A DNA stretch of 64,000 bases. It comes from Patescibacteria group bacterium. GTDB taxonomy: Bacteria > Patescibacteriota > Patescibacteriia > Patescibacteriales > JAQVLT01. The stretch spans positions 36,997-100,996 of the forward strand of contig JAQVLT010000003.1 of NCBI GenBank assembly GCA_028704015.1, written 5' to 3'. The notes beneath the pieces were generated by a model. That model saw nothing but the letters and a program-made list of their open reading frames with translations, had not been told where the DNA came from and did no database searches. Position numbers and translations under genes: made by a program. Below are positions 1,757 to 46,869 of the stretch, piece after piece. Every line of letters starts with the position of its first letter. Positions within the stretch are counted from its first letter, which is position 1.

Positions 1757-1779
1757 AAATCCCCTATTTTGGGGATTTT
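1757..1779 (+). terminator. hairpin AAATCCCC-TATTTT-GGGGATTT followed by a T-run
   Basis: Read directly. Lies downstream of the AKR gene and overlaps the last codons of comEC on the other strand. Confidence 0.45.
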
Positions 1780-3317
1780 TTGTTAGGAGAATTGCTATTG
1801 ACTAAATAAATTACAAATAGATAATAAATTAACACCCAGCCGAACCAAAGATAATCAACCTTGATATAAGCGTAGGGAATCCGCGACGTGTAATCAACTG
1901 CTAAAATCACAAATTTTAAAAGTAAATTCGCCGGTAGAAAAAATAAAAATGCCAAGCCGGGAAGCAAAAATCCAAGAATCATCGCCAAAAAAATAAAAAG
2001 CATTGCCGGAGCAATCGTCCAGAGAACTAATAAATTACTCAACGGCGCGACCAGGGAAATTTGCTTAAAATTATAAGCGATAATCGGCAAGGTAAAAACT
2101 TGTGCCGACAATGTTAGAGCTATAATTTCTGCGCCTAAACGAAAAAACTTATTTTTTGCTTTATCTAAATATTTTTCCCAGAGCGGATAAACATAAATCA
2201 AGCCAACTAGCGCCAAAAAAGATAGTTGAAAACCGACATCGTCCCGCAAAAGTCGCGGATTAAATAAAAGCATTGTGGCAGCTGCGAAAATCAAAGCATT
2301 GATCAGGCGACTTTTTCGACCAAGCTGAATAGCGAGCATTGCCAAAAAACTCATAACCGCCGCTCGCACCGCCGAAGCCGGCGCGCCAACCAAAATCGTA
2401 AAAATTATAATAAAAGCTAAGGACAAATAAAATGCCTGCCGCCGCCTAAGGCCAACGGCTAATAAAGCCGTCATACTGGCCGCGGCAATAATTGTCATAT
2501 TCATTCCGGAAACCGCCATGATGTGCGTGAGCCCAGTCTGCGAAAATTTCTGGTTTAATTCTTCGCCCATCCCCTGCCGGTCGCCAATCATTATCCCAAG
2601 CGCTAAACCCGACTCAGGATCAGATAGTCCAAAATTAATTATTTCGCGTATCTTATTTTTTAAAATAAAAATCTTTTTATAAAACCAATCCGCTGGTTTA
2701 TTTGTCACAATATCATCACCAATTTTTTTGATCTGCGGATAATAACAAACGGAAAAAATATTATAGCGCGCCAAATAGCGGTCATAGGAAAAATCGTTAA
2801 TCGCGTCCGGTTGTTTTAAATCACAATTAATTTCCAATTTATCGCCGAAATTATACTCGGGAAACAAATCGGCGGTGATTAATAATTTGCCGCTAACCGG
2901 TAGAGACGCATTGTCATGCGTCTCTACATTATCCGTTCCCACGGATCGTACCTTAATTTCCAATTTTTGATTATTTGACCGCACATCCGGCTCTTTATCC
3001 ACCACGCCATCTACAATAATTTTTTGGCCATTATAATGCCAAATTTTGTCCGGATAATTTTTCGGAATTGAAATTGAATAGCGCCAAACGCCAAAAAATA
3101 AAAAACAACCCCATAGGCCGAGCAGTAAAATTTTTTTATTTGACCAAGAAAAAATTGTTAAAATAAAAAACGCAACTAAAGACGAAAACCAAATAAATCT
3201 ATTTTGAATAATATTTTCTGACACGATTGAAGCCGAGACAATGCCAATAATAAAAAATAAACACAAAAATAAAAAAATCTTTGATTTAGAAAAAATAATA
3301 TCCCTCCTAAAAAACAT
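1764..3317 (-). CDS. comEC: ComEC/Rec2 DNA internalisation channel (no C-terminal MBL domain)
   Basis: 517 aa and polytopic. Competence-domain signature FSQTGLTHIMAVSGMNMTIIAA. The ORF ends before any metallo-beta-lactamase domain. Confidence 0.8.
   Translation of the reverse strand: MFFRRDIIFSKSKIFLFLCLFFIIGIVSASIVSENIIQNRFIWFSSLVAFFILTIFSWSNKKILLLGLWGCFLFFGVWRYSISIPKNYPDKIWHYNGQKIIVDGVVDKEPDVRSNNQKLEIKVRSVGTDNVETHDNASLPVSGKLLITADLFPEYNFGDKLEINCDLKQPDAINDFSYDRYLARYNIFSVCYYPQIKKIGDDIVTNKPADWFYKKIFILKNKIREIINFGLSDPESGLALGIMIGDRQGMGEELNQKFSQTGLTHIMAVSGMNMTIIAAASMTALLAVGLRRRQAFYLSLAFIIIFTILVGAPASAVRAAVMSFLAMLAIQLGRKSRLINALIFAAATMLLFNPRLLRDDVGFQLSFLALVGLIYVYPLWEKYLDKAKNKFFRLGAEIIALTLSAQVFTLPIIAYNFKQISLVAPLSNLLVLWTIAPAMLFIFLAMILGFLLPGLAFLFFLPANLLLKFVILAVDYTSRIPYAYIKVDYLWFGWVLIYYLFVIYLVNSNSPNKKSPK
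2900..2927. repeat. 28-nt GC-rich palindrome inside comEC coding sequence
   Basis: GTAGAGACGCA-TTGTCA-TGCGTCTCTAC, 11-bp perfect arms. Translated as VETHDNASL. Confidence 0.8.
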
Positions 3318-3322
3318 AAAAA

Positions 3323-3592
3323 AAATAAGAGGATATTAAAAACTCCTCTTTTTGAAATTAATCCTTTATTGGCTCATGGCCTTTCTTACGCCGTACGGCA
3401 GGCGTAAGGCGTCGGGAGGCAACACTCCTTCGGATATAATGCTGACAACTTTAGCGCCCAAAAGCGCGGCGCACCGGAAACAATCGCTCTCCCGACATCC
3501 AGGGGGACATACAACACTTTTTGGCCCTACTACGAGCAGATCCATGACTAACCTCCTTCCCTGTTGAAAAAGTACCCCCCCCTCTCTTTTTT
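3323..3592 (-). ncRNA. candidate structured RNA or cis-regulatory leader between prfB and comEC (class unknown)
   Basis: GC-rich block in an AT-rich spacer. Complementary pairs: GTCGGGAG 3411-3418 with CTCCCGAC 3489-3496; CTTACGCC with GGCGTAAG; GCGCC with GGCGC; TCATGG with CCATGA. Ends in AAGAGGA-N10-TCCTCTT plus U8 (3318-3350), which abuts the comEC ATG. No RNase P, tmRNA or SRP motifs recognised. Confidence 0.35.
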
Positions 3593-3629
3593 AGATTAAC
3601 ATAATTATTGTTTTAATGCTATTTTCTTA

Positions 3630-4727
3630 CTATATACTTCGCGCTTTGCGCAAATACGCTTCCATAAATTGTTCTAGTTCCCCATCTAAAATATTATCAA
3701 TATTTTGCGTTTCAAAATTTGTCCGATGATCTTTTACCATTTTATAAGGTTGCATGACATAAGAGCGAATTTGTTTTCCCCATTCAGCTTTCTGCGCTTC
3801 ACCGCGCATTTTCTTTTCTTCTTTGTCCTTTTCTTCTTCTTGCAATTTAAATAATTTTGATTTTAAAATTTTTAATGCGTTTTCCTTGTTCTGATGCTGA
3901 GAACGCTCAGTCTGACAAGTTACCGTGATGCCAGTCGGCTTGTGAACGACACGCACGGCCGAATCGGTAGTATTCACACTCTGACCGCCAGGACCGGATG
4001 AACGAAAAACATCAATCCGCAAATCTTCATCTTTTATTTCAATGCTTTCTGCTTCCGGCAATTCCGGTATTACCTCAACCAAAGCGAAAGAAGTATGCCG
4101 CATTTGCTCGGCGTCAAATGGCGAAATGCGAACCAAGCGATGAACGCCATTTTCACTGCGCAAATAGCCATATGCCCAGCGTCCGATAATTTTTATCACT
4201 GAGCTCTTTATACCAGCTTCATTACCCATAACTCTATCCATAATTTCCGTTTTCCAACCCCTTTTTTCCGCAAATCGTAAATACATCCGCTCTAAAATTT
4301 GCGCCCAATCTTGCGCATCAACGCCGCCCGTGCCAGCATGAATTGAAACAATTGCGTTGCTTCTGTCATATCTCCCGGAAAATAAAACTAAAAATTCAAG
4401 CTGAGAAAATTTTTCTTTCAATTCAATATATTTTTGATTTACCTCGTCATAAACCGAGACGTCATTTTCCTTCGCAGCCACTGCCGCAAATTCTTCAAGC
4501 TCTCTAACTTCTTTGGATAATTCTTCCCACTTATTTACCTCGCTCTCCAATTCTTCTAATTTTTTGCTGATTGTCACCGCCTTCTCATGATTATTCCAAA
4601 AATTGGGATTACTGATTTCCCTCTTAATTTCTCTAATTTCTGTTTTTTGCCCTTCCAAATCCAAAAGCTCCGAAGTATCTAAAATTCGCTCGCGTAATTC
4701 TTCCAAATTTTTCAATAAATTCTCCAT
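3630..4727 (-). CDS. prfB: peptide chain release factor 2
   Basis: 365 aa with the SPF tripeptide (RISPFD) and GGQ (SGPGGQSVN). One uninterrupted ORF, no +1 frameshift site. Confidence 0.92.
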   Translation of the reverse strand: MENLLKNLEELRERILDTSELLDLEGQKTEIREIKREISNPNFWNNHEKAVTISKKLEELESEVNKWEELSKEVRELEEFAAVAAKENDVSVYDEVNQKYIELKEKFSQLEFLVLFSGRYDRSNAIVSIHAGTGGVDAQDWAQILERMYLRFAEKRGWKTEIMDRVMGNEAGIKSSVIKIIGRWAYGYLRSENGVHRLVRISPFDAEQMRHTSFALVEVIPELPEAESIEIKDEDLRIDVFRSSGPGGQSVNTTDSAVRVVHKPTGITVTCQTERSQHQNKENALKILKSKLFKLQEEEKDKEEKKMRGEAQKAEWGKQIRSYVMQPYKMVKDHRTNFETQNIDNILDGELEQFMEAYLRKARSI

Positions 4728-4811
4728 ATCCCGGCAAATTACAAATTAACTCCGAATATACAAATATATAATAAGTATACCATAATATTTCGTAAAACTT
4801 CCAGCAAATAC

Positions 4812-4837
4812 AAAAATCCCGATTACTCGGGATTTTT
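4812..4837. terminator. bidirectional hairpin AAAAATCCCG-ATTACT-CGGGATTTTT
   Basis: Read directly, downstream of rpsI on the minus strand. Confidence 0.55.
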
Positions 4838-4878
4838 TGTTTATATCAATTTTTTTTCTAAAAACTAAAATCTTAAAA

Positions 4879-5331
4879 CTAACGTTTTGACCATTGCGGA
4901 GCGCGTCTTGCTTTTTTGAGGCCCGGCTTCTTTCTTTCTTTCTTGCGAGCATCTCTGGTTACTAAATCTTTTGCCCTTAAAACTAATTTTATTTCTTTAT
5001 TCATGGCAATTAATATTCTGGATATTCCTAGCCGTGCAGCTTCTGCCTGTGCTTTCTTCCCGCCGCCATGAACTATGATAGATATATCAAAATCTCTCTG
5101 TTGGCCGGTTAATTTCAATGATTGGCTGAGAATTGCAATATGATCAGCAGTAAAATATTTTTTAGCCGGTAAACCATTAACCGCAATCATGCCCTTGCCG
5201 TTTTGATAAATTCTAACTTCCGCCGATGCAGTTTTTCGAGAACCGATCGCTCTGATATATTTCCCTTTAAACTTAATTGCTTCTTCATTGTTTTCCACAA
5301 TTTTATTGGTTGTATTTTTTTCTTCTGTCAT
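4879..5331 (-). CDS. rpsI: 30S ribosomal protein S9
   Basis: C-terminus KKARRAPQWSKR and GSRKTASAEVRI core. About 20-aa N-terminal extension. Confidence 0.93.
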   Translation of the reverse strand: MTEEKNTTNKIVENNEEAIKFKGKYIRAIGSRKTASAEVRIYQNGKGMIAVNGLPAKKYFTADHIAILSQSLKLTGQQRDFDISIIVHGGGKKAQAEAARLGISRILIAMNKEIKLVLRAKDLVTRDARKKERKKPGLKKARRAPQWSKR

Positions 5332-5346
5332 AAATATTTATGCAAT

Positions 5347-5703
5347 TTATCTGATTATTAATCTTTTTAACATGCCATTGCGCAATCTATTAGCCGGAAG
5401 CATTTGTTTTACCGCTCGCATCAATATATCTCCCGGATTTTTTTCTTTTAGATCTTTCATTTTAGTGACTCTAATTCCTCCCGGATAACCTGAATAACGA
5501 TAATATTTTTTCTGTTCAAGTTTCTTGCCGGTAAACTTTAATTTACTAATGTTTGCAACTTCAACAATGTCTCCTGCGTCAATATTGGGAGTATATTCCG
5601 GTTTATTTTTGCCACGTAAAATTATTGCGATTTGAGATGCTAATCTTCCGACCGCCTTATCTGTCGCATCAATTTTTTGTAATTTTCTTTCAACCTTTTT
5701 CAT
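5347..5703 (-). CDS. rplM: 50S ribosomal protein L13
   Basis: KAVGRLASQIAIILRGKNKPEYTPNIDAGD matches the L13 N-terminal core. Only 118 aa, which is short. Confidence 0.9.
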   Translation of the reverse strand: MKKVERKLQKIDATDKAVGRLASQIAIILRGKNKPEYTPNIDAGDIVEVANISKLKFTGKKLEQKKYYRYSGYPGGIRVTKMKDLKEKNPGDILMRAVKQMLPANRLRNGMLKRLIIR

Positions 5704-5739
5704 ATTTGTAGATTTGAATATTATTTGTAGATTTGAGTG

Positions 5740-6090
5740 CTATACTAATTCTAATTGCACCACTTCGGCACCATCGCCTTTTCTATCACCCAATTTAATA
5801 ATTCTGGTATAGCCGCCTTTTTTGTCTTTATATTTAGCTCCTAAAACTTCCATGGCTTTTTTTATCGCCATTTTCTGCGGTAAAATCTGAATTAATTGGC
5901 GTCTGGCAGATAAGTCTCCTTTTTTGGCAATCGTAATAATTTTTTCTACCAACGGCTTAACTGCTTTTGCCTTTGCGGATGTAGTTTTTACTTTTTCGTA
6001 AATTAAAACGCTTGACGCCAAATTTCTCAGCATCAATTCCCTCGGTGCTTTTTTTCTGTCTAAAATTACTCCTTTATTTCCATGTCTCAT
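5740..6090 (-). CDS. rplQ: 50S ribosomal protein L17
   Basis: MRHGNKGVILDRKKAPR...GGYTRIIKLGDRKGDGA...LELV. Confidence 0.92.
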   Translation of the reverse strand: MRHGNKGVILDRKKAPRELMLRNLASSVLIYEKVKTTSAKAKAVKPLVEKIITIAKKGDLSARRQLIQILPQKMAIKKAMEVLGAKYKDKKGGYTRIIKLGDRKGDGAEVVQLELV

Positions 6091-6107
6091 ATGTATAATT
6101 TTTTATT

Positions 6108-6929
6108 TTAAGATTTCTTTGGGCGACCGCGCCTTTTCTTTTCTGTAGTAAGTTCCTCGGAAACCGACTCAGCATCCTCCTCGATAGATTCCTCTTCAAC
6201 TTTTTCTTCTTCAATATTTTGCGCTTTTTTTTCAACTTCCTCGCCCAACAAAGCGTTAAATTGGTTAATTAATATTTGCGCTGAATCTTCAAAAGCTTTT
6301 TGCGGAGTAATAGTGCCGTCAGTCACAATGTCCAATATCAACTTGTCCCAATTGGTCATTTTGCCGACGCGCATGCTATCTACTGAGATACCGACAGAAA
6401 CAACCGGAGAAAAAATTGAATCCATATCAATATGACCGATCTCATGCTTTTTTTCTTCTATACTTTCTATTGAGCGATAACCGCGTCCACGGCTCACATA
6501 GATTTCCATATTCAAACTGCCGGCCATGTCAGTAATATGCGCCAAAATTAAATCCGGATTAACAATTTCTACTTCGCTATTTTTAGTAATATCGCCCGCT
6601 TTTACTTCTTTCGCGCCATGCGCATTTAATTCTAATTTTATTTCTTCGTCGCTTTCAGAAAATATTTTTAAGCGCAATTGTTTCAAATTTAAAATAATAT
6701 CTAAAACATCTTCTTTGACGTGCGGCAAAGACATAAACTCATGATCAACTCCCTTTATCTTAACGCTCACTACCGCGGCGCCAGGCAAAGAAGAAAGCAA
6801 CACCCGCCTCAAAGAATTACCCAGAGTTGTGCCATAACCAGGATAGCACGGTTCAACCGTAACAATCCCCTGATTAGCACTTTCTCCGGCTTTAAATTCT
6901 ATTTTTTTAGGCAAAACGATGTCGTTCAT
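6108..6929 (-). CDS. rpoA: RNA polymerase alpha subunit: NTD only, with an acidic tail and AT-hook
   Basis: NTD motifs GNSLRRVLLSSLPGAAV. The ORF track starts at 6959, but ATG at 6929 (MNDIVLPKKIEF) matches the usual N-terminus. C-terminus is EE-rich and ends KKRRGRPKKS. Confidence 0.9.
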   Translation of the reverse strand: MNDIVLPKKIEFKAGESANQGIVTVEPCYPGYGTTLGNSLRRVLLSSLPGAAVVSVKIKGVDHEFMSLPHVKEDVLDIILNLKQLRLKIFSESDEEIKLELNAHGAKEVKAGDITKNSEVEIVNPDLILAHITDMAGSLNMEIYVSRGRGYRSIESIEEKKHEIGHIDMDSIFSPVVSVGISVDSMRVGKMTNWDKLILDIVTDGTITPQKAFEDSAQILINQFNALLGEEVEKKAQNIEEEKVEEESIEEDAESVSEELTTEKKRRGRPKKS

Positions 6930-7040
6930 AGAATGTAATTGGTGATTGGTAATTTGCAATTTGGCCGTATTTGCGGCTCTCCTCCAAAGCTTACCAAATT
7001 ACTGATTACAAATTACTAATTACTATTATATAAATAAAAA

Positions 7041-7670
7041 TTATCTTGAATAAAACTCAACGATCATCTGAATATTTAAATTGCTTCTTATATCATCCAT
7101 AGTCGGCAAATGTAAAATTTTTCCGCTTAATTCCTCAGTATTAACATTTACCCAGCTAGGCAGAGTTGCTTTTTTTAATTTTTCACCCAAATCTTTAAAA
7201 TGTTTAAACTTTTTACTTCTTTCTTTGACTTTAACAATATCACCAACTTTTACGGAATAAGACGGAATATTCACTGCTTTGCCATTTACGGTAAAATGGC
7301 CATGATTTACTAATTGCCGAGCTTGATTCCGTGAATTCGCCATATTTAAACGATAAACCGCGTTATCCAATCTTAATTCCAAAAGTTTAAATAAATTATC
7401 TCCGGTATTGCCTGAATGTTTCTTGGCTTTTTCAAAAGTGATAGAAAATTGCTTCTCATTTAAATTATATTGTTTCTTGGCTTTTTGTTTTTCGGTTAAC
7501 TGAATGCCATAGTCGCTCTGCTTTCTCTTATTCTTTTGGCCATGGCAACCAGGCGGATAGTTTCTTTTTACCATCGCGCATTTCTGCGTGCTACAACGAT
7601 CGCCTTTAAGCATCAGCTTTTCGCCTACTCGTCTGCATTGTTTGCATTTTGGATCTAAATTTCTTCCCAT
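7041..7670 (-). CDS. rpsD: 30S ribosomal protein S4
   Basis: 209 aa with the Cys-cluster N-terminus CKQCRR..C..QKC and an S4 domain (RLDNAVYRL). Confidence 0.93.
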   Translation of the reverse strand: MGRNLDPKCKQCRRVGEKLMLKGDRCSTQKCAMVKRNYPPGCHGQKNKRKQSDYGIQLTEKQKAKKQYNLNEKQFSITFEKAKKHSGNTGDNLFKLLELRLDNAVYRLNMANSRNQARQLVNHGHFTVNGKAVNIPSYSVKVGDIVKVKERSKKFKHFKDLGEKLKKATLPSWVNVNTEELSGKILHLPTMDDIRSNLNIQMIVEFYSR

Positions 7671-7698
7671 ATTTATTAATTAGAAATTCTTAAATTTA

Positions 7699-8304
7699 TT
7701 ATACTCTTCTTGGCTTCTTCGGACGGCAACCATTGTGAGGAATCGGAGTAATATCTTTGATTGAATTAATGTATAAACCATTAGCATTTAAAGCTCTTAC
7801 GGCTGATTCTCGGCCAGTACCAACTCCCTTTATAAAGGCGCTCACTTCTTCCAGGCCATAATCCTGACGCGCTTTTTCAACGGCTATTCTCGTAATAATG
7901 GAGGCGGCGTAAGGAGTTGATTTTTTTGCTCCTTTAAAACCGGCTATACCGGCGCTTGCCCATGAAAGGACATTGCCCTGTACATCAGTCAAGGTTACTA
8001 TCGTATTATTATAAGTGGCGTTAACAAAGGCCATGCCAATATTTGCTTTTCTCACAACTTTTTTCTTTTTCTTTTTGTATGATTTTTTTTCTGATTTATC
8101 ATTTTTTCTGCTTTCCAACTTTTTTCTAACTTCTTCCGGCAATTCTTCAAGTTCCGGTCCATTTTTCTGAGAAACATTTTCTTCAACTTCAAAATTTTCA
8201 TTTTCCTCAACATCAAACTGAGCTTCCTGGTTTGAAACTTCATCTTTTTTTATTTCGTCATTATTTTGTGTATCTTTTTCTTCAGTCATATAAATATAAT
8301 TCAA
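7699..8304 (-). CDS. rpsK: 30S ribosomal protein S11 with a long acidic N-terminal extension
   Basis: Core [18 protein letters not shown]...[13 protein letters not shown]. About 70 extra N-terminal residues rich in E/D/K. Confidence 0.9.
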
Positions 8305-15792: not shown

Positions 15793-17070
15793 CTAAAGAG
15801 ACAAAGAGTCTCCGGTCATGGGCGCATAAGCTTCGCACCCAAGCTCGCGCGCCAGGCAAACCACTGCCTGACAAGCTTGCGGACTGCCATGCTGGGCAAT
15901 GACAATCCGAGGTTTGACCATCTGAATCGCTTGGCGGATGGCCGCGGCATCGGAATGAGCGGAGAAGCTTAGCTTCTCAACGTGGCAGCCCAATCTGACG
16001 CGTTCTCCACCAACGGAAATATTGCCAGTTTTCAGAAGATCTCTCCCTCTTGTGTCCTCTGCCTGATAACCGGCCAAAATAAGGAGATTCTTCGGATCAG
16101 GACCTTTTACTCGGATGTATTCCATGATAGGACCGCCCTCAAGCATGCCGCTCGTGGCGACAAATACACCTTGCGAAATTAGGTGTATCTGGCGATCCCA
16201 TTGGGAAATCCGCCTGACGGAGTAAAGCGCTTGGCGAAGTGCTTCGGGATCCCGAAGATATTCCGAATGCGCGAGAAATACATCCGTCACATTATTCCCC
16301 ATGCCATCCAAATGCACCGGGCAAGAGAGGCCCATCTCGGCAAGGAGAAGGAGAATCTCTTGCGTCCTCGCCAGCGCGAAGGCGGCGATCATCACTGAAC
16401 CGCCACCAGCGATTGTCTCGGCAACCAGAGACTTAAATCTCTCTTCAACCGCAGTCCTGTCAGGATGCGACCTGTCCCCATAAGTCGCATCAATGATAAG
16501 AATCTCCGCATGCGGAAGACGCTCGCATTTTTTCACGAGGCGAGTATCCATGCTATTAAAATCGCCGGTATAAAGCAATGACCTCCTACCTTGCTTCAGA
16601 ATGATACTGACTGAGCCGGGAATATGGCCAGCCGGGAAAAACTGATAGTGGACATTGCCGCGACGACCCTTTTCTTTGTACCGCATGAGCGACAGTACTC
16701 TCTCAATGTCGCTCTCATTATATCGCGGCTCTTGCTTCTTCTTCGCCGCAATTTTCAGAGAGTCATAGAGAAGAAGCTCTGCCGCTTCTTTGGTGATCGG
16801 CGTACAGAAGACGGGGCAATTCAGCCCATCTTTTGCCAGTTCAGCCAAGCCGCCAACATGGTCAAGATGCCCATGAGAAATCGCCGCGAAGCTGATTTTC
16901 TCCAGCCGCGTGATTTTTTCGGGCCAAGCCATAATTTTGGTTCCGCCTATGTTCGCGGGTTTGAGTCCATAATCAAGAAGGATCCGAGACCCATCAGGAA
17001 ATACTGCTTCGATGCAGCTTCTCCCAACTTCGGATCCTGCACCGTGCATTGTTATCCCGATGTTTCCCAT
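15793..17070 (-). CDS. MBL-fold beta-CASP family hydrolase (RNA/DNA-processing nuclease type)
   Basis: HGHLDHVGG motif and C-terminal FSAHSDAAAI...AQHGSP (beta-CASP motifs B/C). GC-rich. The ORF track begins at GTG 17079; ATG 17070 follows GGAGA. Confidence 0.8.
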   Translation of the reverse strand: MGNIGITMHGAGSEVGRSCIEAVFPDGSRILLDYGLKPANIGGTKIMAWPEKITRLEKISFAAISHGHLDHVGGLAELAKDGLNCPVFCTPITKEAAELLLYDSLKIAAKKKQEPRYNESDIERVLSLMRYKEKGRRGNVHYQFFPAGHIPGSVSIILKQGRRSLLYTGDFNSMDTRLVKKCERLPHAEILIIDATYGDRSHPDRTAVEERFKSLVAETIAGGGSVMIAAFALARTQEILLLLAEMGLSCPVHLDGMGNNVTDVFLAHSEYLRDPEALRQALYSVRRISQWDRQIHLISQGVFVATSGMLEGGPIMEYIRVKGPDPKNLLILAGYQAEDTRGRDLLKTGNISVGGERVRLGCHVEKLSFSAHSDAAAIRQAIQMVKPRIVIAQHGSPQACQAVVCLARELGCEAYAPMTGDSLSL

Positions 17071-17131
17071 ATTGACCACATCTCCTCTCGCTTTGATTTT
17101 TAGCTAAAAAGAACAACTTTACAGATTATGA

Positions 17132-17272: not shown

Positions 17273-17330
17273 AGTTCTTGCCGGTTTTGTTGCTAAAATT
17301 TAGCGCTAAAACCGGCAAGAACTGTTTTTT
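17273..17330 (+). terminator. leader terminator/attenuator hairpin
   Basis: Perfect 16-bp stem AGTTCTTGCCGGTTTT / AAAACCGGCAAGAACT, 19-nt loop, then GTTTTTT. Sits between the promoter and the ATG at 17392. Confidence 0.5.
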
Positions 17331-17391
17331 GTTTTCAATTTTACGCGCTTTTCGCGCGCACCCATTCACACACCACAAAGGAGGAAGCACC

Positions 17392-18096
17392 ATGACGGAA
17401 GAGCGATATGACCATATTATGGTAAGCCTCAGGGCAAACCGGAACATGGTGGAGAGGGGGCGAAAGTTGGGTCTCCCCTACGTATTCCGGACAAAGCAAC
17501 AGCAGAAAGAGCTAACCGCGCTGTATGCGGCGAAAGCGGGTGAGGCCAAGGCGTTCCGGCTGGAGCGCGAGGACACCGCCGGCAATCCCCAGGCTGACGG
17601 TGGCAACCTCGTCTTCGGACGGAATGGCCAGGAGAACATCCATCTCTGGTCCCTCTTGGACGACTTGTCCAAGGCCGGCTACGGTCTGACCATCGCCGAG
17701 GTCTTCCAGAAGGAGAGCGACAGTAACGGCGTTGGTTTCATCAGGTTTGTTTTTACCCACGACAAAGCCGTTGTGATGCCGACCTTCTTCGAGGTCAGCG
17801 AAGAACAAGAGCGCTTTATGACTCTTCTCTTCAAACGCCTTTACCGGAAGGTGCACGGTTTCCGAAACAACGCGGCGGTCTCGCTCGAGGGCGAACAAAA
17901 CCCGATCCAGGGGCCCATCATCACGCTCAACGTGGCCGGCCCAGTCACGGAAGCGCGTGAACTCGAAGAGCGGCGCCCTTATCGCCGCGACCTGCGGCTC
18001 CTGGACGAGCTCGGGCATTTCCGGTGCCCGCTCCACGACTCCCAGGCCCACGCTCTGGCCAAGAAGCAGAAGGCCTCCGTCCAGGCCCCCGCCTGA
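17392..18096 (+). CDS. hypothetical protein (GC-rich, no recognisable domain)
   Basis: The ORF track starts at 17278, but ATG 17392 is preceded by AAAGGAGGAAGCACC. 234 aa. Confidence 0.55.
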   Translation: MTEERYDHIMVSLRANRNMVERGRKLGLPYVFRTKQQQKELTALYAAKAGEAKAFRLEREDTAGNPQADGGNLVFGRNGQENIHLWSLLDDLSKAGYGLTIAEVFQKESDSNGVGFIRFVFTHDKAVVMPTFFEVSEEQERFMTLLFKRLYRKVHGFRNNAAVSLEGEQNPIQGPIITLNVAGPVTEARELEERRPYRRDLRLLDELGHFRCPLHDSQAHALAKKQKASVQAPA

Positions 18097-18262: not shown

Positions 18263-18420
18263 TTTTGTCATCTCGAATCCCCCGGTCGCAACCGGGGGTG
18301 AGAGATCTATAATACTTTGTTTTCCTATAAAGCATTATTTATGCGCTTCGCCGTATATTAAAGATCCCTGCCTGCCGGCAGGCAGGTCTCGCACGCCTCG
18401 GGCGGGTCGAGATGACAAAA
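18263..18420. mobile_element. 158-nt MITE-like element (intergenic copy)
   Basis: Perfect 14-bp TIRs TTTTGTCATCTCGA / TCGAGATGACAAAA. Internal hairpins CCCCCGG..CCGGGGG and GATCCCTGCCTGCCGGCAGGCAGG (18363-18386). Confidence 0.65.
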
Positions 18421-23549: not shown

Positions 23550-23633
23550 GCCGAAGTGGCGAAACTGGTAGACGCGCACGACTCAAAATCGTGTGGAAGC
23601 AATTCCATGAGAGTTCGATTCTCTCCTTCGGCA
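23550..23633 (+). tRNA. tRNA-Leu(CAA), type II with a long variable arm
   Basis: Hand-folded. Acceptor GCCGAAG/CTTCGGC, anticodon stem CACGA/TCGTG with loop CTCAAAA, T-arm GAGAG-TTCGATT-CTCTC. No encoded CCA. Confidence 0.9.
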
Positions 23634-23708
23634 CAAATAATTTTTGATTTTCGATTTTTGAATAATGTTTACTTAAAAAATCTAAAATCGTAAATCAAAA
23701 ATTACTAA

Positions 23709-23780
23709 GGACGCTTAGCTCAGCTGGTTACCCGCCCGTACCGAACGCGGTACGTTCGGGCGGGGAGCGCCTCGTTTACA
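23709..23780 (+). pseudogene. tRNA-Val 5' half (nt 1-37) disrupted by a 34-nt GC palindrome in the D-loop
   Basis: GGACGCTTAGCTCAGCTGGTTA [CCCGCCCGTACCGAACGCGGTACGTTCGGGCGGG] GAGCGCCTCGTTTACA. Apart from the insert it is identical to 24027-24064. Confidence 0.75.
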
Positions 23781-23794
23781 ACTAATAATTTAAT

Positions 23795-24049
23795 ATGTAC
23801 ACAGTGTATATTTTAAAAGATGAAAATGGAAATTTGTATAAAGGCATGACAAGTGATATAAAACGAAGATTAAATGAACATCGGCGAGGAAAAACACAAA
23901 CTACTAGAAGAATGAAAAATATCAAATTAGTTTATCAAGAAGAGCTGGCTACATTTGATGCTGCACGCAAAAGAGAATTATATTTGAAAACTGCCGCTGG
24001 AAGAAAATTTATAAAAGAAAAATTAAGGACGCTTAGCTCAGCTGGTTAG
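23795..24049 (+). CDS. small GIY-YIG nuclease family protein (UPF0213/YhbQ-like)
   Basis: 84 aa. YTVYILKDENGNLYKGMTSDIKRRLNEHRRGK... The last 7-8 codons and the stop lie inside tRNA-Val. Confidence 0.85.
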   Translation: MYTVYILKDENGNLYKGMTSDIKRRLNEHRRGKTQTTRRMKNIKLVYQEELATFDAARKRELYLKTAAGRKFIKEKLRTLSSAG

Positions 24050-24103
24050 AGCGCCTCGTTTACACCGAGGAGGTCGAGGGTTCGATCCCTTCAGCGTCCA
24101 CCA
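24027..24103 (+). tRNA. tRNA-Val(TAC), CCA encoded
   Basis: Hand-folded. GGACGCT/AGCGTCC acceptor, D-arm GCTC..GAGC, anticodon stem CCTCG/CGAGG with loop TTTACAC, T-loop TTCGATC, then ACCA. Confidence 0.92.
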
Positions 24104-24185: not shown

Positions 24186-25805
24186 ATGAAGAATGAAAAA
24201 AAACCGGAAAAGGTTGCCTTGTTGAGCGTTTTCAACAAGGACGGGATTGTGGAGTTTGCTCGCACCCTCAAGAACATGGGCTGGAAACTTCTTGCTTCCG
24301 GGGGCACGGCGCAGACGCTCAAAAACGCCGGGCTGGAAGTCAAGGATGTCGCGGACCTGGTCGGCGGCGGCGCTATTCTTGGACACCGCGTGGTCACGCT
24401 CTCACGGGAAATCCACGCCGGCCTTTTGGCGCGTGACATCCCTGAGGACAACGCGGAGCTGGACCGGCTGGGGATCCCGCGCATCGATCTTCTTTGCTCG
24501 GATCTCTACCCGCTTGAGCTGGCCATTGCCGCAGGTAAAACCATGCCCGAGGTCATTGAGATGACCGACATCGGCGGACCCACGCTGATCCGTTCGGCGG
24601 CAAAAGGCCGCCGTATTGTCATCTGCAACCCAAGGGACCGCATGGTTGTTCTCGGCTGGATGACCAGCGGCGAGCTGGACAAGGAAAGCTTCTTAAACAT
24701 GCTTGCCGCCAAAGCCGAAATGACCGTCGCCCGCTACGCACTATCTTCGGCGCGTTTCATCAGCGGCGGCGAGTTCGACGGTTTCCTCGGCCAACGCTAT
24801 CTTGAATGCCTATACGGGGAAAACGCCCCGCAGACTCCGGCCGGCGTCTTTAGCGCCCGTACAAGCGACCTGCTGGCGCTGGACAAACTCCGGCTCTTGA
24901 CCGAAACGTCGTCAAGCTACAACAATACGTGCGACCATGACCGGCTGCTCCAGACAATCACGCACATCGCCGCCGGCTTTGACCTCAACTTCGGCGAAGT
25001 GCCATATATCGCCGTGGCGGTCAAACACGGCAATCCCTGCGGCGTTGGCGTTGGAAAGACGCCGGAAGAAGCTCTCAAGAAGATGATTGACGGCGATCTT
25101 CGCGCCATTCTCGGCGGCATCGTCATGACCAACTTCCTGATAGACGAGACGGCCGCGAAAATCCTGGCCGTCTACCAGGTGCCCGTAAGGAAAAGGCGCT
25201 TGCTGGACGGGATTATCTGCCCGGTCATCACAGATAAGGCCGTTGCGATGCTCGAACGGAAAAAAGCCAAATGCCGGATTCTCATGAACCCTGCTCTAGC
25301 GGAACTGAACGAGAAATCACTGGACACGGCTCCCCGCCTTCGCTGCGTCCGCGGCGGATTTATGGTTCAGCCGAACTACACTTTCATTCTGGATCTGAAC
25401 CACCCGGAAATGAAAAAGTTCGGCCAGGCCACGCCTGAACAGAAACGCGCTATGGTGCTTGCCTGGGCTATCGCAGCCACGGCCAACAGCAACACCATCG
25501 CGCTTGTGAAGGACGGCATGCTTGTCGGCCTGGGATCTGGCCAGCAAGACCGTGTCGGCGCTTGCAAGGTGGCCTGTTTCCGAGCTGACGAATCCGGCCA
25601 TGACATCTTTGGGGCGATTGCGGCAAGCGATAGCTTCTTCCCCTTTGATGATGGCCCGCGCGCCCTTGCCGACAGGGGCGTCAAGGTGATCTTTTCTACC
25701 TCTGGCTCGATCAACGACCAAGCGGTCATTGACTTCTGCCAGGAAAACGGCATCGTGCTCTACATGCTTCCGGACAAGGTGGCCAGGGGTTTCTTCGGCC
25801 ACTAA
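24186..25805 (+). CDS. purH: bifunctional AICAR transformylase / IMP cyclohydrolase
   Basis: 539 aa. MGS-like N-terminus ALLSVFNKDGIVEFARTL..LASGGTAQTL and AICARFT domain. SD GGAGT upstream. GC-rich. Confidence 0.9.
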   Translation: MKNEKKPEKVALLSVFNKDGIVEFARTLKNMGWKLLASGGTAQTLKNAGLEVKDVADLVGGGAILGHRVVTLSREIHAGLLARDIPEDNAELDRLGIPRIDLLCSDLYPLELAIAAGKTMPEVIEMTDIGGPTLIRSAAKGRRIVICNPRDRMVVLGWMTSGELDKESFLNMLAAKAEMTVARYALSSARFISGGEFDGFLGQRYLECLYGENAPQTPAGVFSARTSDLLALDKLRLLTETSSSYNNTCDHDRLLQTITHIAAGFDLNFGEVPYIAVAVKHGNPCGVGVGKTPEEALKKMIDGDLRAILGGIVMTNFLIDETAAKILAVYQVPVRKRRLLDGIICPVITDKAVAMLERKKAKCRILMNPALAELNEKSLDTAPRLRCVRGGFMVQPNYTFILDLNHPEMKKFGQATPEQKRAMVLAWAIAATANSNTIALVKDGMLVGLGSGQQDRVGACKVACFRADESGHDIFGAIAASDSFFPFDDGPRALADRGVKVIFSTSGSINDQAVIDFCQENGIVLYMLPDKVARGFFGH

Positions 25806-25829
25806 TCAAAATTCTTTTAATCCTCCAGC

Positions 25830-25876
25830 AGGACTTTCAAAGTTTCTTACGAGAAACTACGAAAGTCCTTTTTTTC
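25830..25876 (+). terminator. hairpin AGGACTTTC...GAAAGTCCT plus T7
   Basis: Read directly after purH. Confidence 0.6.
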
Positions 25877-26024
25877 TTGCTTTTTTCTTAAAATTTATCT
25901 AATATAAAGTTAGAAAGGAGGGCCAATCTTATCGTAAGATTCGGCTCTTTTTGCACCTTGAAAAAATCGATTTTGAAAACCGTAGAGATAAACTGACAAC
26001 CCCTCAACGGAAAGGACTGATGCA

Positions 26025-27509
26025 ATGGACGAACGGTATACCATAGAAAAAATTACGAAAATCTGGTCGACTGAGAACAAGCTCAGTCTCTGGCAAAAAA
26101 CCGAACTCATGGCAATCAAAGCCAGGGTGATTCTCGGCCTTGTCGCCGAGACGATTTTCCTGAAGATCGAGGAAACGCTCAAGCGAATCCCGATTGACAT
26201 CCCGTGGTGGAAAAACCGCGACAAAGAGATCCGCCACGACCTTAACGCCTTTCTCGATGAGAGACTCCGTCACCTGACCGAGGAATTACAGCGCTACCTG
26301 CACGAGGACATGACCTCCTACGATACGGAGGAACCGGCTTTTGTGTGCATGCTCAGGGAGTCAGTGCAGATTGTCATCAGGAGTCTGGAAGAAGTCTGCA
26401 AAACTCTGAAAGCAATGGCACTCAAATACCGCTACACAATCATGAACGCCAGAACCCACGGACAGGAAGCCAAGCTGCAAAGCTTTGGTAAAAGATGCCT
26501 TACCTGGTACGTGATTTTGCAATTAGACCTCAACAACCTGAAGAATACGGTCAGTTCTCTCAAGTATGCCAAGCTTTCCGGCGCTGCCGGGAACTACGGC
26601 GACATGGATCCGGCGGTGGAGATCGAAACTCTGAAACAGCTTGGATTCGAACCGCTCTACGGCACACCCCAGATCCTTCCCCGCGAGCTTTTTGCTCCAC
26701 TGGCGCAAGCGCTCTGCCAGATCGTGCAGTCGTTGGACAAAATCGCGACCGATATTAGATTAGGCGCGCGTAGTGGACGGCCGATCTTGCAAGAGCCGTT
26801 CGGAAAAAAGCAAAAGGGCTCTTCCGCCATGCCGCATAAAAAAAACACCATCCGCACCGAGCAGATGGAAGGCATGGCGCGCATGGCGCGCGGCTACATG
26901 AATATGATCCTGGAAGCGATCAAAACCTGGGAAGAACGGGCTATTGAACAATCCTGCGTGGAAAGAGTGGCCTGGCCTGATCTCTTCCATGTGGTCGTTC
27001 ATTCACTGAAAACCATGAACGCAGTACTAACCGGCCTAACCGTTTATCCCGACAATATGCTTCTGGAAATCGCTGATTCCTGCGGAACTTACGCTTCGGA
27101 AGAAGCAAAAAAGCTTCTCCGGGAATTCCTGGCGGAACGCGGATTGTCAAGCGAAGTGGCCTACCGTATCGTGCAACTCGCCGCCTTCAATGCTCTGGAA
27201 CTTAGCGGCGGTTTCCAAAGATTGCGTGATGGCATTCCTTCAACGATAGAAGAAGCGGAAGTGGCGTTAAAGGAAGCTTCTAGTTTGGATCGACCAAGGA
27301 GAGAAAGCATCCAGGACATCATCCCTTTAGGCCATTTGCGCCACTCACCCCAACTCGAAGCTACCGAGAAAGAAATCGAGGGATGGAACGTGATGCTGTT
27401 CACCATCTTCTCGAGTCGCAGAATTCGCGATCGCTGGAACCAAATCTTCCGGCCGTCATACCAGCTAAGACGCGAACCTTTTCTCTACGAAAAGATACTT
27501 GGAAAATAA
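26025..27509 (+). CDS. purB: adenylosuccinate lyase
   Basis: Fumarate-lyase signature GSSAMPHKKNT. N-terminus RYTIEKITKIWSTENK. Confidence 0.9.
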   Translation: MDERYTIEKITKIWSTENKLSLWQKTELMAIKARVILGLVAETIFLKIEETLKRIPIDIPWWKNRDKEIRHDLNAFLDERLRHLTEELQRYLHEDMTSYDTEEPAFVCMLRESVQIVIRSLEEVCKTLKAMALKYRYTIMNARTHGQEAKLQSFGKRCLTWYVILQLDLNNLKNTVSSLKYAKLSGAAGNYGDMDPAVEIETLKQLGFEPLYGTPQILPRELFAPLAQALCQIVQSLDKIATDIRLGARSGRPILQEPFGKKQKGSSAMPHKKNTIRTEQMEGMARMARGYMNMILEAIKTWEERAIEQSCVERVAWPDLFHVVVHSLKTMNAVLTGLTVYPDNMLLEIADSCGTYASEEAKKLLREFLAERGLSSEVAYRIVQLAAFNALELSGGFQRLRDGIPSTIEEAEVALKEASSLDRPRRESIQDIIPLGHLRHSPQLEATEKEIEGWNVMLFTIFSSRRIRDRWNQIFRPSYQLRREPFLYEKILGK

Positions 27510-27535
27510 CCCCCCCCACCGAAAGGAGACCGCCC

Positions 27536-28093
27536 ATGAATCCTAAATTTGTACCGCAAGTCGTAATCATCGCCGGAAGCGACACGGATCTCAAAGCGAT
27601 TGAAGATGCCGGTATGTTGAAGGCCTTCCAGGAAATGAGCATAACCTACGCTCTTTCCTTTCTCTCCGCACACCGCCATCCTGATGATCTGAAGAACTAT
27701 TTACTCGCCATGGAAAAGGAAGGTACTCTAGTTTTCATCGGGATCGCCGGCATGTCCGCTGCTCTTCCTGGAGATATGTCAGCAATTCTCAAAAACAAAC
27801 GTCCTGTCATCGGAGTTCCTTTGATCGCACCCGACGGATTCAGCGGTCTGGATGCTCTTTTCTCCATGATCCGTTTGCCAGCAAGCACTGCCGTGGCCGT
27901 CCCGGGAATCGGCAAAGCAGGACTGAAAAACGCGACGATCCTTGCTTGCCAGATTCTTGGAGTAGAGCGGCCCGAAACACAGGTCGCTTTGAACAACTAC
28001 CTCACGAAAAAAGCGGCCAAAAAGCCACCCCAACCCGACTTCGAAATTTTTAACGGGAAAACCGTTCACCACCAACATAAAGGAGGAGCATAA
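27536..28093 (+). CDS. purE: PurE (AIR carboxylase / N5-CAIR mutase family)
   Basis: VVIIAGSDTDL, SAHRHPDD, AGMSAALPG, PVIGVPL. The ORF track starts at 27383, but ATG 27536 follows GAAAGGAGA. Confidence 0.85.
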   Translation: MNPKFVPQVVIIAGSDTDLKAIEDAGMLKAFQEMSITYALSFLSAHRHPDDLKNYLLAMEKEGTLVFIGIAGMSAALPGDMSAILKNKRPVIGVPLIAPDGFSGLDALFSMIRLPASTAVAVPGIGKAGLKNATILACQILGVERPETQVALNNYLTKKAAKKPPQPDFEIFNGKTVHHQHKGGA

Positions 28094-28096
28094 CCC

Positions 28097-28987
28097 ATGA
28101 TCCAGCCCCTGTTCGAAACCAACTTTCCCGGCCTTCCCGTTCCTCGTCGCGGCAAAGTCCGCGACATCTATGACCTAGGTGATTTTCTGCTCATGGTCGC
28201 CACTGACCGGCTATCAGCTTTCGACGTGGTCATGAAGGACCCGATCCCAGGTAAAGGCATTACCCTCACGCAGATGACCTTGTTCTGGCTGGAAATGTTC
28301 GCAGATATGGTGTTGAACCACTTGGTTACGGCTGATCCCGCCCAGTACCCGGACATCTGCAAACCCTACGCCGACATTCTTGTCGGCCGCAGCATGCTGG
28401 TCAAAAAATGTGCGCCCCTGCCAGTGGAATGCATCGTCCGCGGCTACCTTAGCGGTTCCGGCTGGAATGATTACAAAAAGACCGGATGCGTCTGCGGCAT
28501 CCAGCTTCCGCCCGGCCTTCTGGAATCGGCGCAGCTTCCTGAACCGATTTTCACGCCTTCTACCAAGGCTGAGCAGGGCAAGCACGACGAGAACATTTTG
28601 TTTGAACAAGCAGTAAAACTACTCAGCCGCGAGACCGCAGAAAAAATCCAAAAACTCTCACTCGCGCTCTACCAACGGGCCGCGGCTCATGCCCGCAGAC
28701 GCGGCATCATCATAGCGGACACGAAATTCGAGTTCGGGCTTGATAAAGACGGCAACATCGTGCTGATAGACGAGGTTCTCACCTCGGATTCATCCAGGTT
28801 TTGGCCCGCCGCCCAATACGAACCCGGACATGGCCAGCCGAGCTTTGACAAACAAGGCGTCCGCGACTTTCTGGTTAAGATCGGCTGGGACAAAAAGCCG
28901 CCTGCACCCAAACTCCCGATCGGCGTCATCGCCGAGACGCGCGAGAAGTACCTGAAGGCTCTCCGCCTCCTCACCGGCCAATTCTAA
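28097..28987 (+). CDS. purC: SAICAR synthetase
   Basis: GKVRDIYD, LIDEVLTSDSSRFW. Confidence 0.92.
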   Translation: MIQPLFETNFPGLPVPRRGKVRDIYDLGDFLLMVATDRLSAFDVVMKDPIPGKGITLTQMTLFWLEMFADMVLNHLVTADPAQYPDICKPYADILVGRSMLVKKCAPLPVECIVRGYLSGSGWNDYKKTGCVCGIQLPPGLLESAQLPEPIFTPSTKAEQGKHDENILFEQAVKLLSRETAEKIQKLSLALYQRAAAHARRRGIIIADTKFEFGLDKDGNIVLIDEVLTSDSSRFWPAAQYEPGHGQPSFDKQGVRDFLVKIGWDKKPPAPKLPIGVIAETREKYLKALRLLTGQF

Positions 28988-40349: not shown

Positions 40350-40475
40350 GCTTAACTCGCGCCCAGCCGTAAACGGCAGGGCTATTTTGTTAAAGCCCCA
40401 TTAATGGGGCTTCCGCCTATCTAGCCCAATCCATTTATGGCCATGCCTACCGGCAGGCAGGTTGGGCGTAGAAAT
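40350..40475. repeat. GC-rich palindromic block in the rpsB 5' leader
   Basis: AAGCCCCATTAATGGGGCTT plus GCCCAA..CCTACCGGCAGGCAGG..TTGGGC. Shares the CCGGCAGGCAGG core with the other elements. Confidence 0.6.
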
Positions 40476-45564: not shown

Positions 45565-46680
45565 CTATTTTCTGCTAGCAGAAAATTTCTCCCATTCTTT
45601 TCCAATAAATTCTTTCATTTCTTTTTTGAATCTTTCTTTGGAAAATTTTTCCGCGTGTTCACGGATAAACTGCGGGGTAAAATTATTCGGATTAAAATTT
45701 TGGACAGTTTCTTTAATCGCTTCCGCGGTTTGCTCGCTGAAAAATAAGCCGGTCTTTCCGGGTATAACTGTTTCCAGCGCTCCGCCGCGCGAATACGCGA
45801 TCACCGGCCGACCGGAAGCCATTGATTCCACGACCGTTATGCCGAAATCTTCCACTTGCGGATTAATAAACGCCTGACATTGGCTGAATAACTTCGCCCG
45901 CTCGGCATCGCTTACTCTTCCCAGTAATTCAATATTTTCCGCCTCGCCGGCGATATTTTTTAACCGTGACAAATCAATGCCATCGCCAAAAACTTTTAAT
46001 TTTTTGTCCGGCATTTTTTTGAAAGCGTCAATCACGATGTCAATCCTTTTGTAAGGCACCAAACGGCAACCGACCAAAAAATAATCTCCCACCTCTGATG
46101 AAATATTAAATTTTTCTATATCCACATTCGGGTAAATAATCGTTGATTCCCGCCTGTAGTATTTAGTAATTCTTTTTTGGCAAGTCAAAGAATTGGCGAT
46201 AAAAACATCCACGCGATCCGCCGCTTGCCTGTCCCAAATGCGCACGTAGTTCAAAACCAAAGAAATTATTTTTTTGAAATATTTATTGTATTTCAGTGCA
46301 TTGATGTATTCATGAGTATCGCTCCAGAGATAGCGCGTCGGCGTATGGCAATAATCAATGTGCAAAGTTTCCGGTTTAGTAATCACTCCCTTCGCGAAAG
46401 ACGAGGAATCAGAGAGCACCAAATCATAATTTCCCAAATCAAAAAACTCCACCGCCATCGGCATAAACGGCATATACCACTGATAATGCTTCACACCGCC
46501 AGGCAAACGCTGAATAATTGAAGCGTCAATTTGGCGGTCGCGGTAATATTTATCTATGTATTTCTGATCATAAAGCAAAGTGTAAATCGGCGCATCAGGA
46601 AATATCTCAACCAAAGCCTTAAAAACTTGCTCGGCGCCGCCGTCCTGCGCTAAATGATCGTGAACTAAGGCAACACGCAT
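45565..46680 (-). CDS. GT4-family glycosyltransferase
   Basis: EDFGITVVESMASGRPVIAY. Confidence 0.85.
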   Translation of the reverse strand: MRVALVHDHLAQDGGAEQVFKALVEIFPDAPIYTLLYDQKYIDKYYRDRQIDASIIQRLPGGVKHYQWYMPFMPMAVEFFDLGNYDLVLSDSSSFAKGVITKPETLHIDYCHTPTRYLWSDTHEYINALKYNKYFKKIISLVLNYVRIWDRQAADRVDVFIANSLTCQKRITKYYRRESTIIYPNVDIEKFNISSEVGDYFLVGCRLVPYKRIDIVIDAFKKMPDKKLKVFGDGIDLSRLKNIAGEAENIELLGRVSDAERAKLFSQCQAFINPQVEDFGITVVESMASGRPVIAYSRGGALETVIPGKTGLFFSEQTAEAIKETVQNFNPNNFTPQFIREHAEKFSKERFKKEMKEFIGKEWEKFSASRK

Positions 46681-46727
46681 GATTTTAGATTTAAGAATAA
46701 AGATTTATGATTTAAGAATGAGTCATC

Positions 46728-46830
46728 CTTTTGTCATTCCGGATCCGCCCGGGGGCGTAATCCGGAATCCCCGCCTACACCGAGGCTTCGGCGGGCAGGC
46801 AGGAGCCAGCGATAAAAACATTATTTTTCC
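46728..46830. repeat. degenerate copy of the TTGTCAT...GGCAGGCAGG element (intergenic)
   Basis: TTTTGTCATTCCGGATCCGCCCGGGGGCG...CGGCGGGCAGGCAGG. No matching right TIR seen. Confidence 0.5.
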
Positions 46831-46869
46831 TACTACGTCACAGCCCCTAAAAAAAGACTGGGAAAAACC

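Follow-up and report, generated by a model that had tools for sequence, protein, structure and literature searches.

What is the GC-rich block that separates prfB from comEC in a bacterial genome whose intergenic DNA is mostly rich in A and T? The question is raised by a stretch of 64,000 nucleotides of contig JAQVLT010000003.1 (hereafter, the window), which derives from a metagenome-assembled genome of an uncultured member of the Patescibacteria. The genes encoding peptide chain release factor 2 (prfB) and a ComEC-family protein are set apart in this DNA by a spacer of 312 nt (3629..3318, minus strand), and the initial annotation had placed therein a GC-rich, helix-rich RNA candidate, running up to a terminator which abuts the comEC start codon. 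The block does lie between the two genes on their coding strand, which is the minus strand, a detail previously left unstated, and the intergenic region is GC-rich as claimed, with a peak of 0.60 per 100 nt. The data gathered here lead to a different view of its nature. The block is very probably a lineage-specific insertion, which belongs to no described RNA family, has no demonstrable conserved structure, and borrowed a terminator already present at the site. As to what the insert contains, we give about even chances to a foreign-looking unit, found in this lineage only, which carries an orphan small open reading frame (ORF). This minus-strand frame, called ORF59, takes up most of the block, and had been missed by the initial annotation.

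The comparison with relatives carries most of the argument. By using prfB as a query, 160 related loci were collected from species-representative genomes and from metagenomes of the Joint Genome Institute (JGI). All belong to Falkowbacteria or other Patescibacteria, and their prfB genes are at most 77% identical to the one analyzed here. In 127 of the 160 loci prfB is followed by comEC on the same strand. The spacer between the two genes is up to 40 nt long in 28 loci, 41-150 nt in 47, 151-250 nt in 3, 251-600 nt in 28, and exceeds 600 nt in 21; spacers not longer than 150 nt are thus found in 75 of the 127 loci. Sequences resembling the spacer under study were found neither by nhmmer, blastn and tblastn in the 160 loci, nor by nhmmer and blastn in three more. 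A ComEC search of a collection of 5.8 billion proteins retrieved only two closer relatives (loci L165 and L167), in which ComEC is 67% identical. Their spacers measure 53 and 119 nt, respectively; each contains a hairpin, and neither a GC-rich block. In a three-way alignment (A1) the 3' end of prfB and the 5' end of comEC are aligned, and the block is a clean gap. Phage and plasmid collections yielded only A/T-rich matches to the spacer, 46 nt long at most. The initial annotation had called for a comparison of this kind, and had made its RNA reading dependent on conservation in related genomes; none was found, and by this standard the reading is unsupported. Covariation could not be computed because the block has no homologues. 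As a side observation, blocks of 50-74% GC directly follow prfB (first 200 nt) in loci L004, L020, L043 and L047, in which no comEC was detected downstream; Rfam scans of three such blocks (L004, L020 and L043) detected no RNA.

The putative insert is delimited by an imperfect direct repeat of 16 nt (family D2; Table 1), the copies of which are identical at 14 of 16 positions, are spaced by 238 nt, and bracket the GC-rich part. Shuffled AT-rich flanks reached a 14/16 repeat in 18 of 2000 trials, and the repeat is suggestive of an insertion. Removal of one 238-nt unit leaves a spacer of 74 nt endowed with a hairpin, which is the common form in relatives. Terminal inverted repeats are missing in the block, and a second copy of it was not found within the window. 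The AT-rich stretch next to prfB is probably ancestral, as judged from its likeness to the sequence found in L167. A recent event may be envisaged in which a foreign-looking unit of ~238 nt entered a short prfB-comEC spacer, just upstream of an existing terminator hairpin. Flanking direct repeats were also considered as a general mechanism for the inserts of relatives, and this was discarded, as no such pattern was seen among 19 of their spacers of similar size, one of which has an equally good repeat.

Table 1. Features of the prfB-comEC junction, listed along the minus strand, with positions in the window
Feature	Position	Strand	Remarks
prfB (peptide chain release factor 2)	4727..3630	-	upstream gene; TAG stop at 3632-3630; Pfam PCRF and RF-1
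AT-rich proximal spacer	3600..3629	-	beginning similar to that of the L167 spacer (alignment A1)
Direct repeat, left copy	3584..3599	-	16 nt, imperfect; minus strand TTAATCTAAAAAAGAG
GC-rich unique part of the putative insertion	3362..3583	-	222 nt; G8 run, Shine-Dalgarno-like sequence, ORF59 and listed helices inside
G8 run	3582-3575	-	within the unique GC-rich part
Shine-Dalgarno-like AAGGAGG	3552..3558	-	6 nt before the ORF59 ATG
ORF59	3545..3366	-	59 codons plus TAA; predicted product MDLLVVGPKSVVCPPGCRESDCFRCAALLGAKVVSIISEGVLPPDALRLPYGVRKAMSQ; unannotated
Long-range 8-bp pairing GUCGGGAG/CUCCCGAC	3411..3496	-	GCGCC/GGCGC stem (3454-3472) enclosed by it; entire pairing within ORF59
8-bp hairpin CUUACGCC/GGCGUAAG, 8-nt loop	3385..3408	-	inside the 3' part of ORF59; -13.0 kcal/mol, z = -2.0, 10/200 shuffles as good
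Direct repeat, right copy	3346..3361	-	TTAATTTCAAAAAGAG; overlaps the first 5 nt of the terminator 5' arm
Intrinsic-terminator-like hairpin	3318..3350	-	AAGAGGA, 10-nt loop, UCCUCUU, A-U8, then comEC ATG
ComEC-family gene	3317..1764	-	downstream gene; 517 aa; DUF4131 and Competence domains (Pfam, NCBIfam)

The terminator in all likelihood antedates the block. The hairpin reported earlier is indeed present: the heptamers AAGAGGA (3327-3333) and TCCTCTT (3344-3350), separated by 10 nt, are followed, reading the minus strand, by A-U8 (3326-3318) and, directly after it, by the comEC ATG (3317-3315). Its 7-bp stem has a folding energy of -8.4 kcal/mol (z = -2.1), and qualifies as an intrinsic terminator; a consensus scan did not list it because the 10-nt loop exceeds 8 nt. 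Relatives provided 44 distinct short spacers, 30-160 nt in length, which were searched for hairpins at least as stable as -6 kcal/mol and continued by a T-run. Such hairpins were found in 18 spacers, 14 of which have a T-run that stops no more than 2 nt away from the assigned start of comEC. In L167, too, a long hairpin and a T-run precede comEC. Because the same arrangement occurs in relatives lacking the block, the terminator in all likelihood predates it, and is probably an ancestral component of the junction, lying outside the insert. For the same reason it can hardly be viewed as the expression platform of the block. A terminator abutting comEC is, as far as sequence comparison tells, a family-wide property of the prfB-comEC junction. 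The element resembles Rho-independent terminators in having a stem, a 10-nt loop and a U8 run located past prfB and ORF59, and analogous hairpins are found in relatives. In turn, it differs in being weak (three G-C pairs) and long-looped, and because the U-run passes directly into the start codon of the next gene.

Two side observations concern the same region. In a more distant clade (L054, L057, L070, L079, L080, L154, L160 and others) the sequence of the hairpin preceding comEC is conserved (ATACCGTTA, loop, TAACGGTAT), and a TA(T/A/G)AAT hexamer as well as a CTTTATCTTTTCTTCATCTC motif come before it; the ensemble has the look of a prfB terminator combined with a comEC promoter/operator. 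The second observation regards the start of comEC. An AGGAGG sequence is located at 3308-3303 (minus strand), 9 nt inside the annotated frame, an in-frame ATT is found 6 nt further (3296), and the N-terminus of ComEC is shorter by 5-8 residues in the closest relatives. The assignment of the start to ATG 3317 may be wrong (region 3294-3317, minus strand), and in this case the distance from the terminator to the true start would be ~20 nt.

The helices on which the RNA reading was founded are there. The 8-bp pair formed by GTCGGGAG (3411-3418) and CTCCCGAC (3489-3496) is read directly from the sequence, GCGCC (3454-3458) pairs with GGCGC (3468-3472), and the CTTACGCC/GGCGTAAG hairpin is present as well, though at 3385-3408, one base off the interval 3386-3409 previously reported. 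Yet, these helices are no more than composition predicts, and the notion that the block is helix-rich beyond chance was not borne out. The core region (3357-3592, minus strand) has a minimum free energy (MFE) of -76.8 kcal/mol versus -73.4 +/- 4.3 for shuffled sequences (z = -0.79), and 43 of 200 shuffles fold equally well. For the whole spacer the z-score is -1.66 on the minus and -1.67 on the plus strand, with no strand specificity, and in both spacer and core the frequency of the MFE structure in the ensemble is ~0. Single hairpins in the block have z-scores of about -2, and the segment 3405-3500, at -35.8 kcal/mol (z = -1.67), is matched by 14 of 200 shuffles.

Searches for known RNA families were similarly unproductive. 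At gathering thresholds, Rfam models identified in the whole window only RNase P and two tRNAs, none of which is in the spacer. By lowering the stringency to E<=10 in the interval 3200-3720 only noise was found, the best hits being Fibro-purF (15.6 bits, threshold 60) and L20_leader (15.0 bits, threshold 58.7), and ARAGORN detected neither a transfer-messenger RNA (tmRNA) nor a tRNA in the spacer. The initial annotation, too, had recognized in the block neither RNase P, tmRNA or signal recognition particle (SRP) RNA nor the common riboswitch cores. Candidates such as 6S RNA, SRP RNA, group II intron domain V and retrons were discarded, since there was no match to a covariance model and no long closing helix; their partner genes also seem to be missing. 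In 16 loci of relatives Rfam scans revealed distant tRNAs only, and no RNA gene downstream of prfB. In our opinion the block is, with high probability, an insertion rather than a conserved structured RNA. The RNase P gene placed by the initial annotation at 49488-49946 was recognized by Rfam at 49486-49945 (minus strand). It covers the full 367-position class A model, yet spans 460 nt, which implies a lineage-specific insertion of ~90 nt.

GC richness offers little guidance. The GC content of the block reaches 0.55-0.57 in 100-nt windows versus 0.18-0.35 in the flanks; most intergenic regions of the window range from 0.16 to 0.35, and the 0.60 peak of the block is matched only by intergenic regions which host tRNAs, RNase P or GC-rich repeat elements. 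GC richness by itself says little, because the window is very heterogeneous (200-nt windows have a standard deviation of 0.085, and a 95th percentile of 0.545), and its long stretches of high GC consist of ordinary protein-coding genes (purH, purB, purE, purC, beta-CASP nuclease). The genome has an overall GC content of ~38%. Long GC-rich intergenic regions of AT-rich genomes are enriched for structured RNAs, but some of those screened for RNAs prove to be ORFs (PMC8632094).

The block has the layout of a small gene. In the open frame no start codon comes before the ATG of ORF59, which is preceded by a ribosome-binding site, and the frame is closed by its own stop codon. ORF59 starts 38 nt from the left edge of the insert and stops 4 nt before the right edge, and the terminator begins 15 nt past the stop codon. 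The two strands of the window together contain 17 AGGAGG sequences; the other sites of the AGGAGG-N6-12-ATG type are four, all located in front of ORFs of 140-296 aa, three of which encode Pfam domains. Native ribosomal-protein genes have no Shine-Dalgarno (SD) sequence, and SD-led genes are mostly GC-rich and apparently acquired (purH/B/E/C, pilin-like). Since high GC and an SD mark apparently acquired genes in the window, the GC-rich, SD-led ORF59 fits acquired coding DNA. As to SD usage in the window at large, the genes for S9, L13, L17 and S4 and prfB (4728-8304, minus strand) have AT-rich leaders devoid of an SD, and SD-like motifs are located within 20 nt of the first start codon in only 7 of 49 long ORFs.

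The predicted product of ORF59 is soluble-looking, and contains four cysteines arranged as C-X3-C-X4-C-X2-C. AlphaFold2 (AF2), run on the single sequence, folded residues 3-35 as beta-alpha-beta, with a mean predicted local distance difference test (pLDDT) score of 62.6, ~80 for residues 11-30, and a predicted template modeling (pTM) score of 0.44. The 71-codon antisense ORF used as a control scored 58.5 and 0.20, respectively, and structure prediction weakly favours ORF59. The antisense frame (3352-3567, plus strand) was rejected as a candidate gene: it starts with TTG, has no SD, is richer in GC at second than at first codon positions (GC2 > GC1), has a poor amino acid score, a pTM of 0.20, and no homologue in the collection of 5.8 billion proteins. 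A similarity to thioredoxins or glutaredoxins, suggested by the succession of a strand, a CxxC at the start of a helix and a strand, was discarded too, as Foldseek found in the Protein Data Bank (PDB) no match at E<2 and no thioredoxin fold.

Small genes are not a novelty at this junction. In relatives, spacers of 250-600 nt often hold a small SD-led ORF followed by a terminator. A DUF378 gene occupies the slot in seven loci (L031, L035, L039 and L046 among them; 87 bits for the ORF of the L031 type), and orphan ORFs are found in L006, L026, L028 and L051. The slot genes of relatives are similar to ORF59 in position and strand, and in having a strong purine-rich SD, a frame of 36-79 codons, and a hairpin with a T-run before comEC. 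In turn, ORF59 has no sequence similarity to any of them. DUF378 is a recognized family of membrane proteins, whereas the product of ORF59 is soluble-looking, has four cysteines, is family-less, and had no match to DUF378 (PF04070) in a Pfam search at E<=10. A similar balance holds for the unannotated small-protein genes which turn up regularly when long GC-rich intergenic regions are screened for RNAs (PMC8632094). Like these, ORF59 is short, SD-led, endowed with its own stop and a downstream terminator, and missed by gene callers, in a region first taken for an RNA candidate; the known ones are recognized by conservation of the ORF, whereas ORF59 has no homologue and its composition is unlike that of the genes of the genome.

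An orphan small-protein gene is favoured by three observations: SD, ATG, ORF and terminator are arranged as in a gene, the insert is filled by the ORF, and small genes are known to have occupied this slot before. The insert would be essentially one small gene cassette, made by a 38-nt leader with AAGGAGG and by ORF59. The minus strand could be transcribed either by read-through from prfB or from a promoter in the AT-rich stretch 3629-3593, transcripts would end at the old terminator (3350-3318), and translation of ORF59 would yield an orphan four-cysteine small protein, the product of a young gene or of one already decaying. That ORF59 is really translated is held more tentatively than the hypothesis as a whole, at somewhat less than even chances.

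Several data weigh against this hypothesis. A word-indexed search of the 5.8 billion proteins retrieved no homologue of ORF59, and an exhaustive HMMER search of 1.84 billion representatives only three repeat-protein artefacts (low-complexity motifs of the 'SEGAVPPD' type). Pfam and NCBIfam (E<=10), PDB sequences and Foldseek against the PDB gave no match, nor did tblastn in 167 related loci. No true homologue was found in phage, plasmid and viral collections either; two matches in viral contigs are spurious because antisense to capsid or scaffold genes. With training sets of either native or GC-rich genes from the window, the codon score of ORF59 fell in the 0-1st percentile of coding windows of the same length, within the range of non-coding frames. 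The composition-corrected amino acid score is in the 3rd percentile of coding windows, and is equalled by 65% of stop-free non-coding windows. A foreign origin of the gene could explain this atypical usage. Moreover, ORF59 is absent from NCBI and Logan gene calls, a promoter was not found in the spacer at the threshold of the scan, and a 59-codon open frame is unremarkable in DNA of 55% GC, another GC-rich intergenic element of the window hosting an ATG-initiated frame of 64 codons. The flanking repeat is in turn moderately significant, an equally good one being found in 1 of the 19 spacers of relatives.

In favour of the insert being an inert scrap of foreign DNA are the missing homologues and a composition like that of non-coding DNA. 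The scrap could be, for instance, the 5' end of a donor gene which has kept an SD and a start codon, or a mobile or repeated element present as a solo copy, and its only consequence would be a longer 3' untranslated region (UTR) of prfB. ORF59 would accordingly be a frame remaining open until the stop-rich, AT-rich native sequence is met, and its end at the boundary of the insert is what a truncated frame would show. Orphan status at both DNA and protein level, the missing gene call, and the restriction of the block to one lineage along with its flanking repeat are all in keeping with inert DNA, as is the abundance of GC-rich inserted elements in the intergenic regions of the window, and in the same spacer in L014 and L017. 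Inert DNA is nonetheless judged less likely than an insert with an orphan small ORF. A perfect AAGGAGG optimally spaced from the first ATG would be a coincidence unless inherited from the donor, and the other sites of this kind mark real gene starts; the block shares no motif with the GC-rich repeats of the window and has no terminal inverted repeats; and small SD-led genes do fill the slot in relatives. A species-specific small RNA (sRNA), either stand-alone or derived from the 3' UTR of prfB, spanning ~3592-3318 on the minus strand and acting in trans or as a protein sponge, would agree with the high GC rank of the block among the intergenic stretches of the window, the other top-ranking ones holding tRNAs, RNase P or repeats, with the orientation shared with the neighbouring genes, the hairpin and U8 at the end, and the few stable local hairpins, as well as with the enrichment of such regions for structured RNAs (PMC8632094). 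It is in our view quite improbable, as no Rfam family, including 6S, SRP and tmRNA, was matched even at E<=10, the energy of folding is like that of shuffles and the z-score the same in the antisense strand, the MFE structure has a frequency of ~0, and neither a homologue in relatives nor a promoter was found. A motif with a single representative is, in addition, unclassifiable by the criteria adopted in screenings (PMC8632094).

The hypothesis that the block is a leader controlling comEC has even less in its favour. According to it, either the block senses a ligand as riboswitches do, or ORF59 is translated as a long leader peptide, and formation of the terminator depends on one or the other. 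The U-run abuts the comEC start, and therefore comEC transcription from upstream must read through the terminator. The ORF59 stop is 15 nt from the hairpin, the foot of which could be touched by a terminating ribosome, and there is partial complementarity between the hairpin's 3' arm and purine tracts lying upstream (inverted repeat I1, a long-range match of 16 nt, 75% complementary). Riboswitches with a terminator platform and leader-peptide attenuators likewise have, just before a gene, a segment that looks structured and then a terminator. But the block has no conserved aptamer, its sequence is absent from the nearest relatives, and in many relatives a comEC-abutting terminator exists with no such block upstream. 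No convincing anti-terminator pairing was found, folding is at chance level, and the known attenuator leader peptides (trp/his/leu-type) are far shorter than 59 codons. Control of comEC by the block is hence scarcely probable. The two RNA functions envisaged by the initial annotation, a riboswitch-like comEC leader and a stand-alone sRNA (e.g. 6S), consequently receive no support from Rfam, folding or conservation. A broader conjecture, for which we see a slim chance, is that ORF59 is an expressed, taxonomically restricted and possibly newly arisen micro-protein, the C-X3-C-X4-C-X2-C array of which may bind metals or be redox-active, and the translation of which could influence read-through into comEC, or else that the block is a structured RNA of one species, to which current databases contain no relatives.

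The initial annotation had also contemplated that the block is one more GC-rich inserted element. This holds in part: the block is an indel relative to the closest relatives and is flanked by the direct repeat, but does not belong to the window's family of GC-rich palindromic repeats. Elements of the latter family, found at 18265-18410, 40440-40465 and 46726-46805, and of the same kind in the L014 and L017 spacers, are recognized by hairpins starting with TTTGTCAT(C/T)..CG(A/G)AT, and by CCTGCC(T)GCCGGCAGGCAGG palindromes. They look like elements akin to miniature inverted-repeat transposable elements (MITEs), and one hosts an incidental 64-codon ATG ORF (46679-46873). Like them, the block is a GC-rich hairpin-forming insertion in AT-rich intergenic DNA, a setting which includes the prfB-comEC spacer of L014 and L017. 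The block has a short direct repeat at its flanks. In contrast to the family, it lacks the family motifs (GTCATYYCGRAT..., CCTGCCGGCAGGCAGG) and terminal inverted repeats, and occurs in a single copy in the window.

A few data on the surrounding genes complete the picture. The identity of prfB is supported by NCBIfam TIGR00020 (489 bits versus a cutoff of 370). ComEC, 517 aa long, scores under the cutoff of the full-length ComEC/Rec2 equivalog, and on this basis appears to lack the C-terminal metallo-beta-lactamase domain; the domain appears to be missing also in relatives, in which ComEC measures 484-568 aa. Assembly GCA_028707515.1 and a second assembly of the same organism are identical over 7.1 kb, and in neither is a gene called in the spacer. 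Farther away, the purH-purB-purE-purC cluster (24186-28987, plus strand) has 50-58% GC and strong SDs, lies next to tRNA-Leu/Val (23550-24103), and looks like a horizontally acquired island for purine synthesis. The same observation takes in 15793-17079 (minus strand) and a neighbouring ORF of 58% GC (17278-18096, plus strand), the latter of which has no Pfam match.

The finding is fairly ordinary, and of little import beyond annotation. It shows that a GC-rich intergenic island in an AT-rich genome of the candidate phyla radiation (CPR) can be something other than an RNA gene. In Falkowbacteria-like genomes the prfB-comEC junction emerges as a variable slot, which has repeatedly acquired small genes and GC-rich repeats. 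The family-wide terminator running into the comEC start may merit study, as it bears on how expression of the competence channel is set in reduced genomes. If ORF59 is truly translated, an uncultured bacterium of the symbiont type would offer a clean case of an orphan micro-protein.

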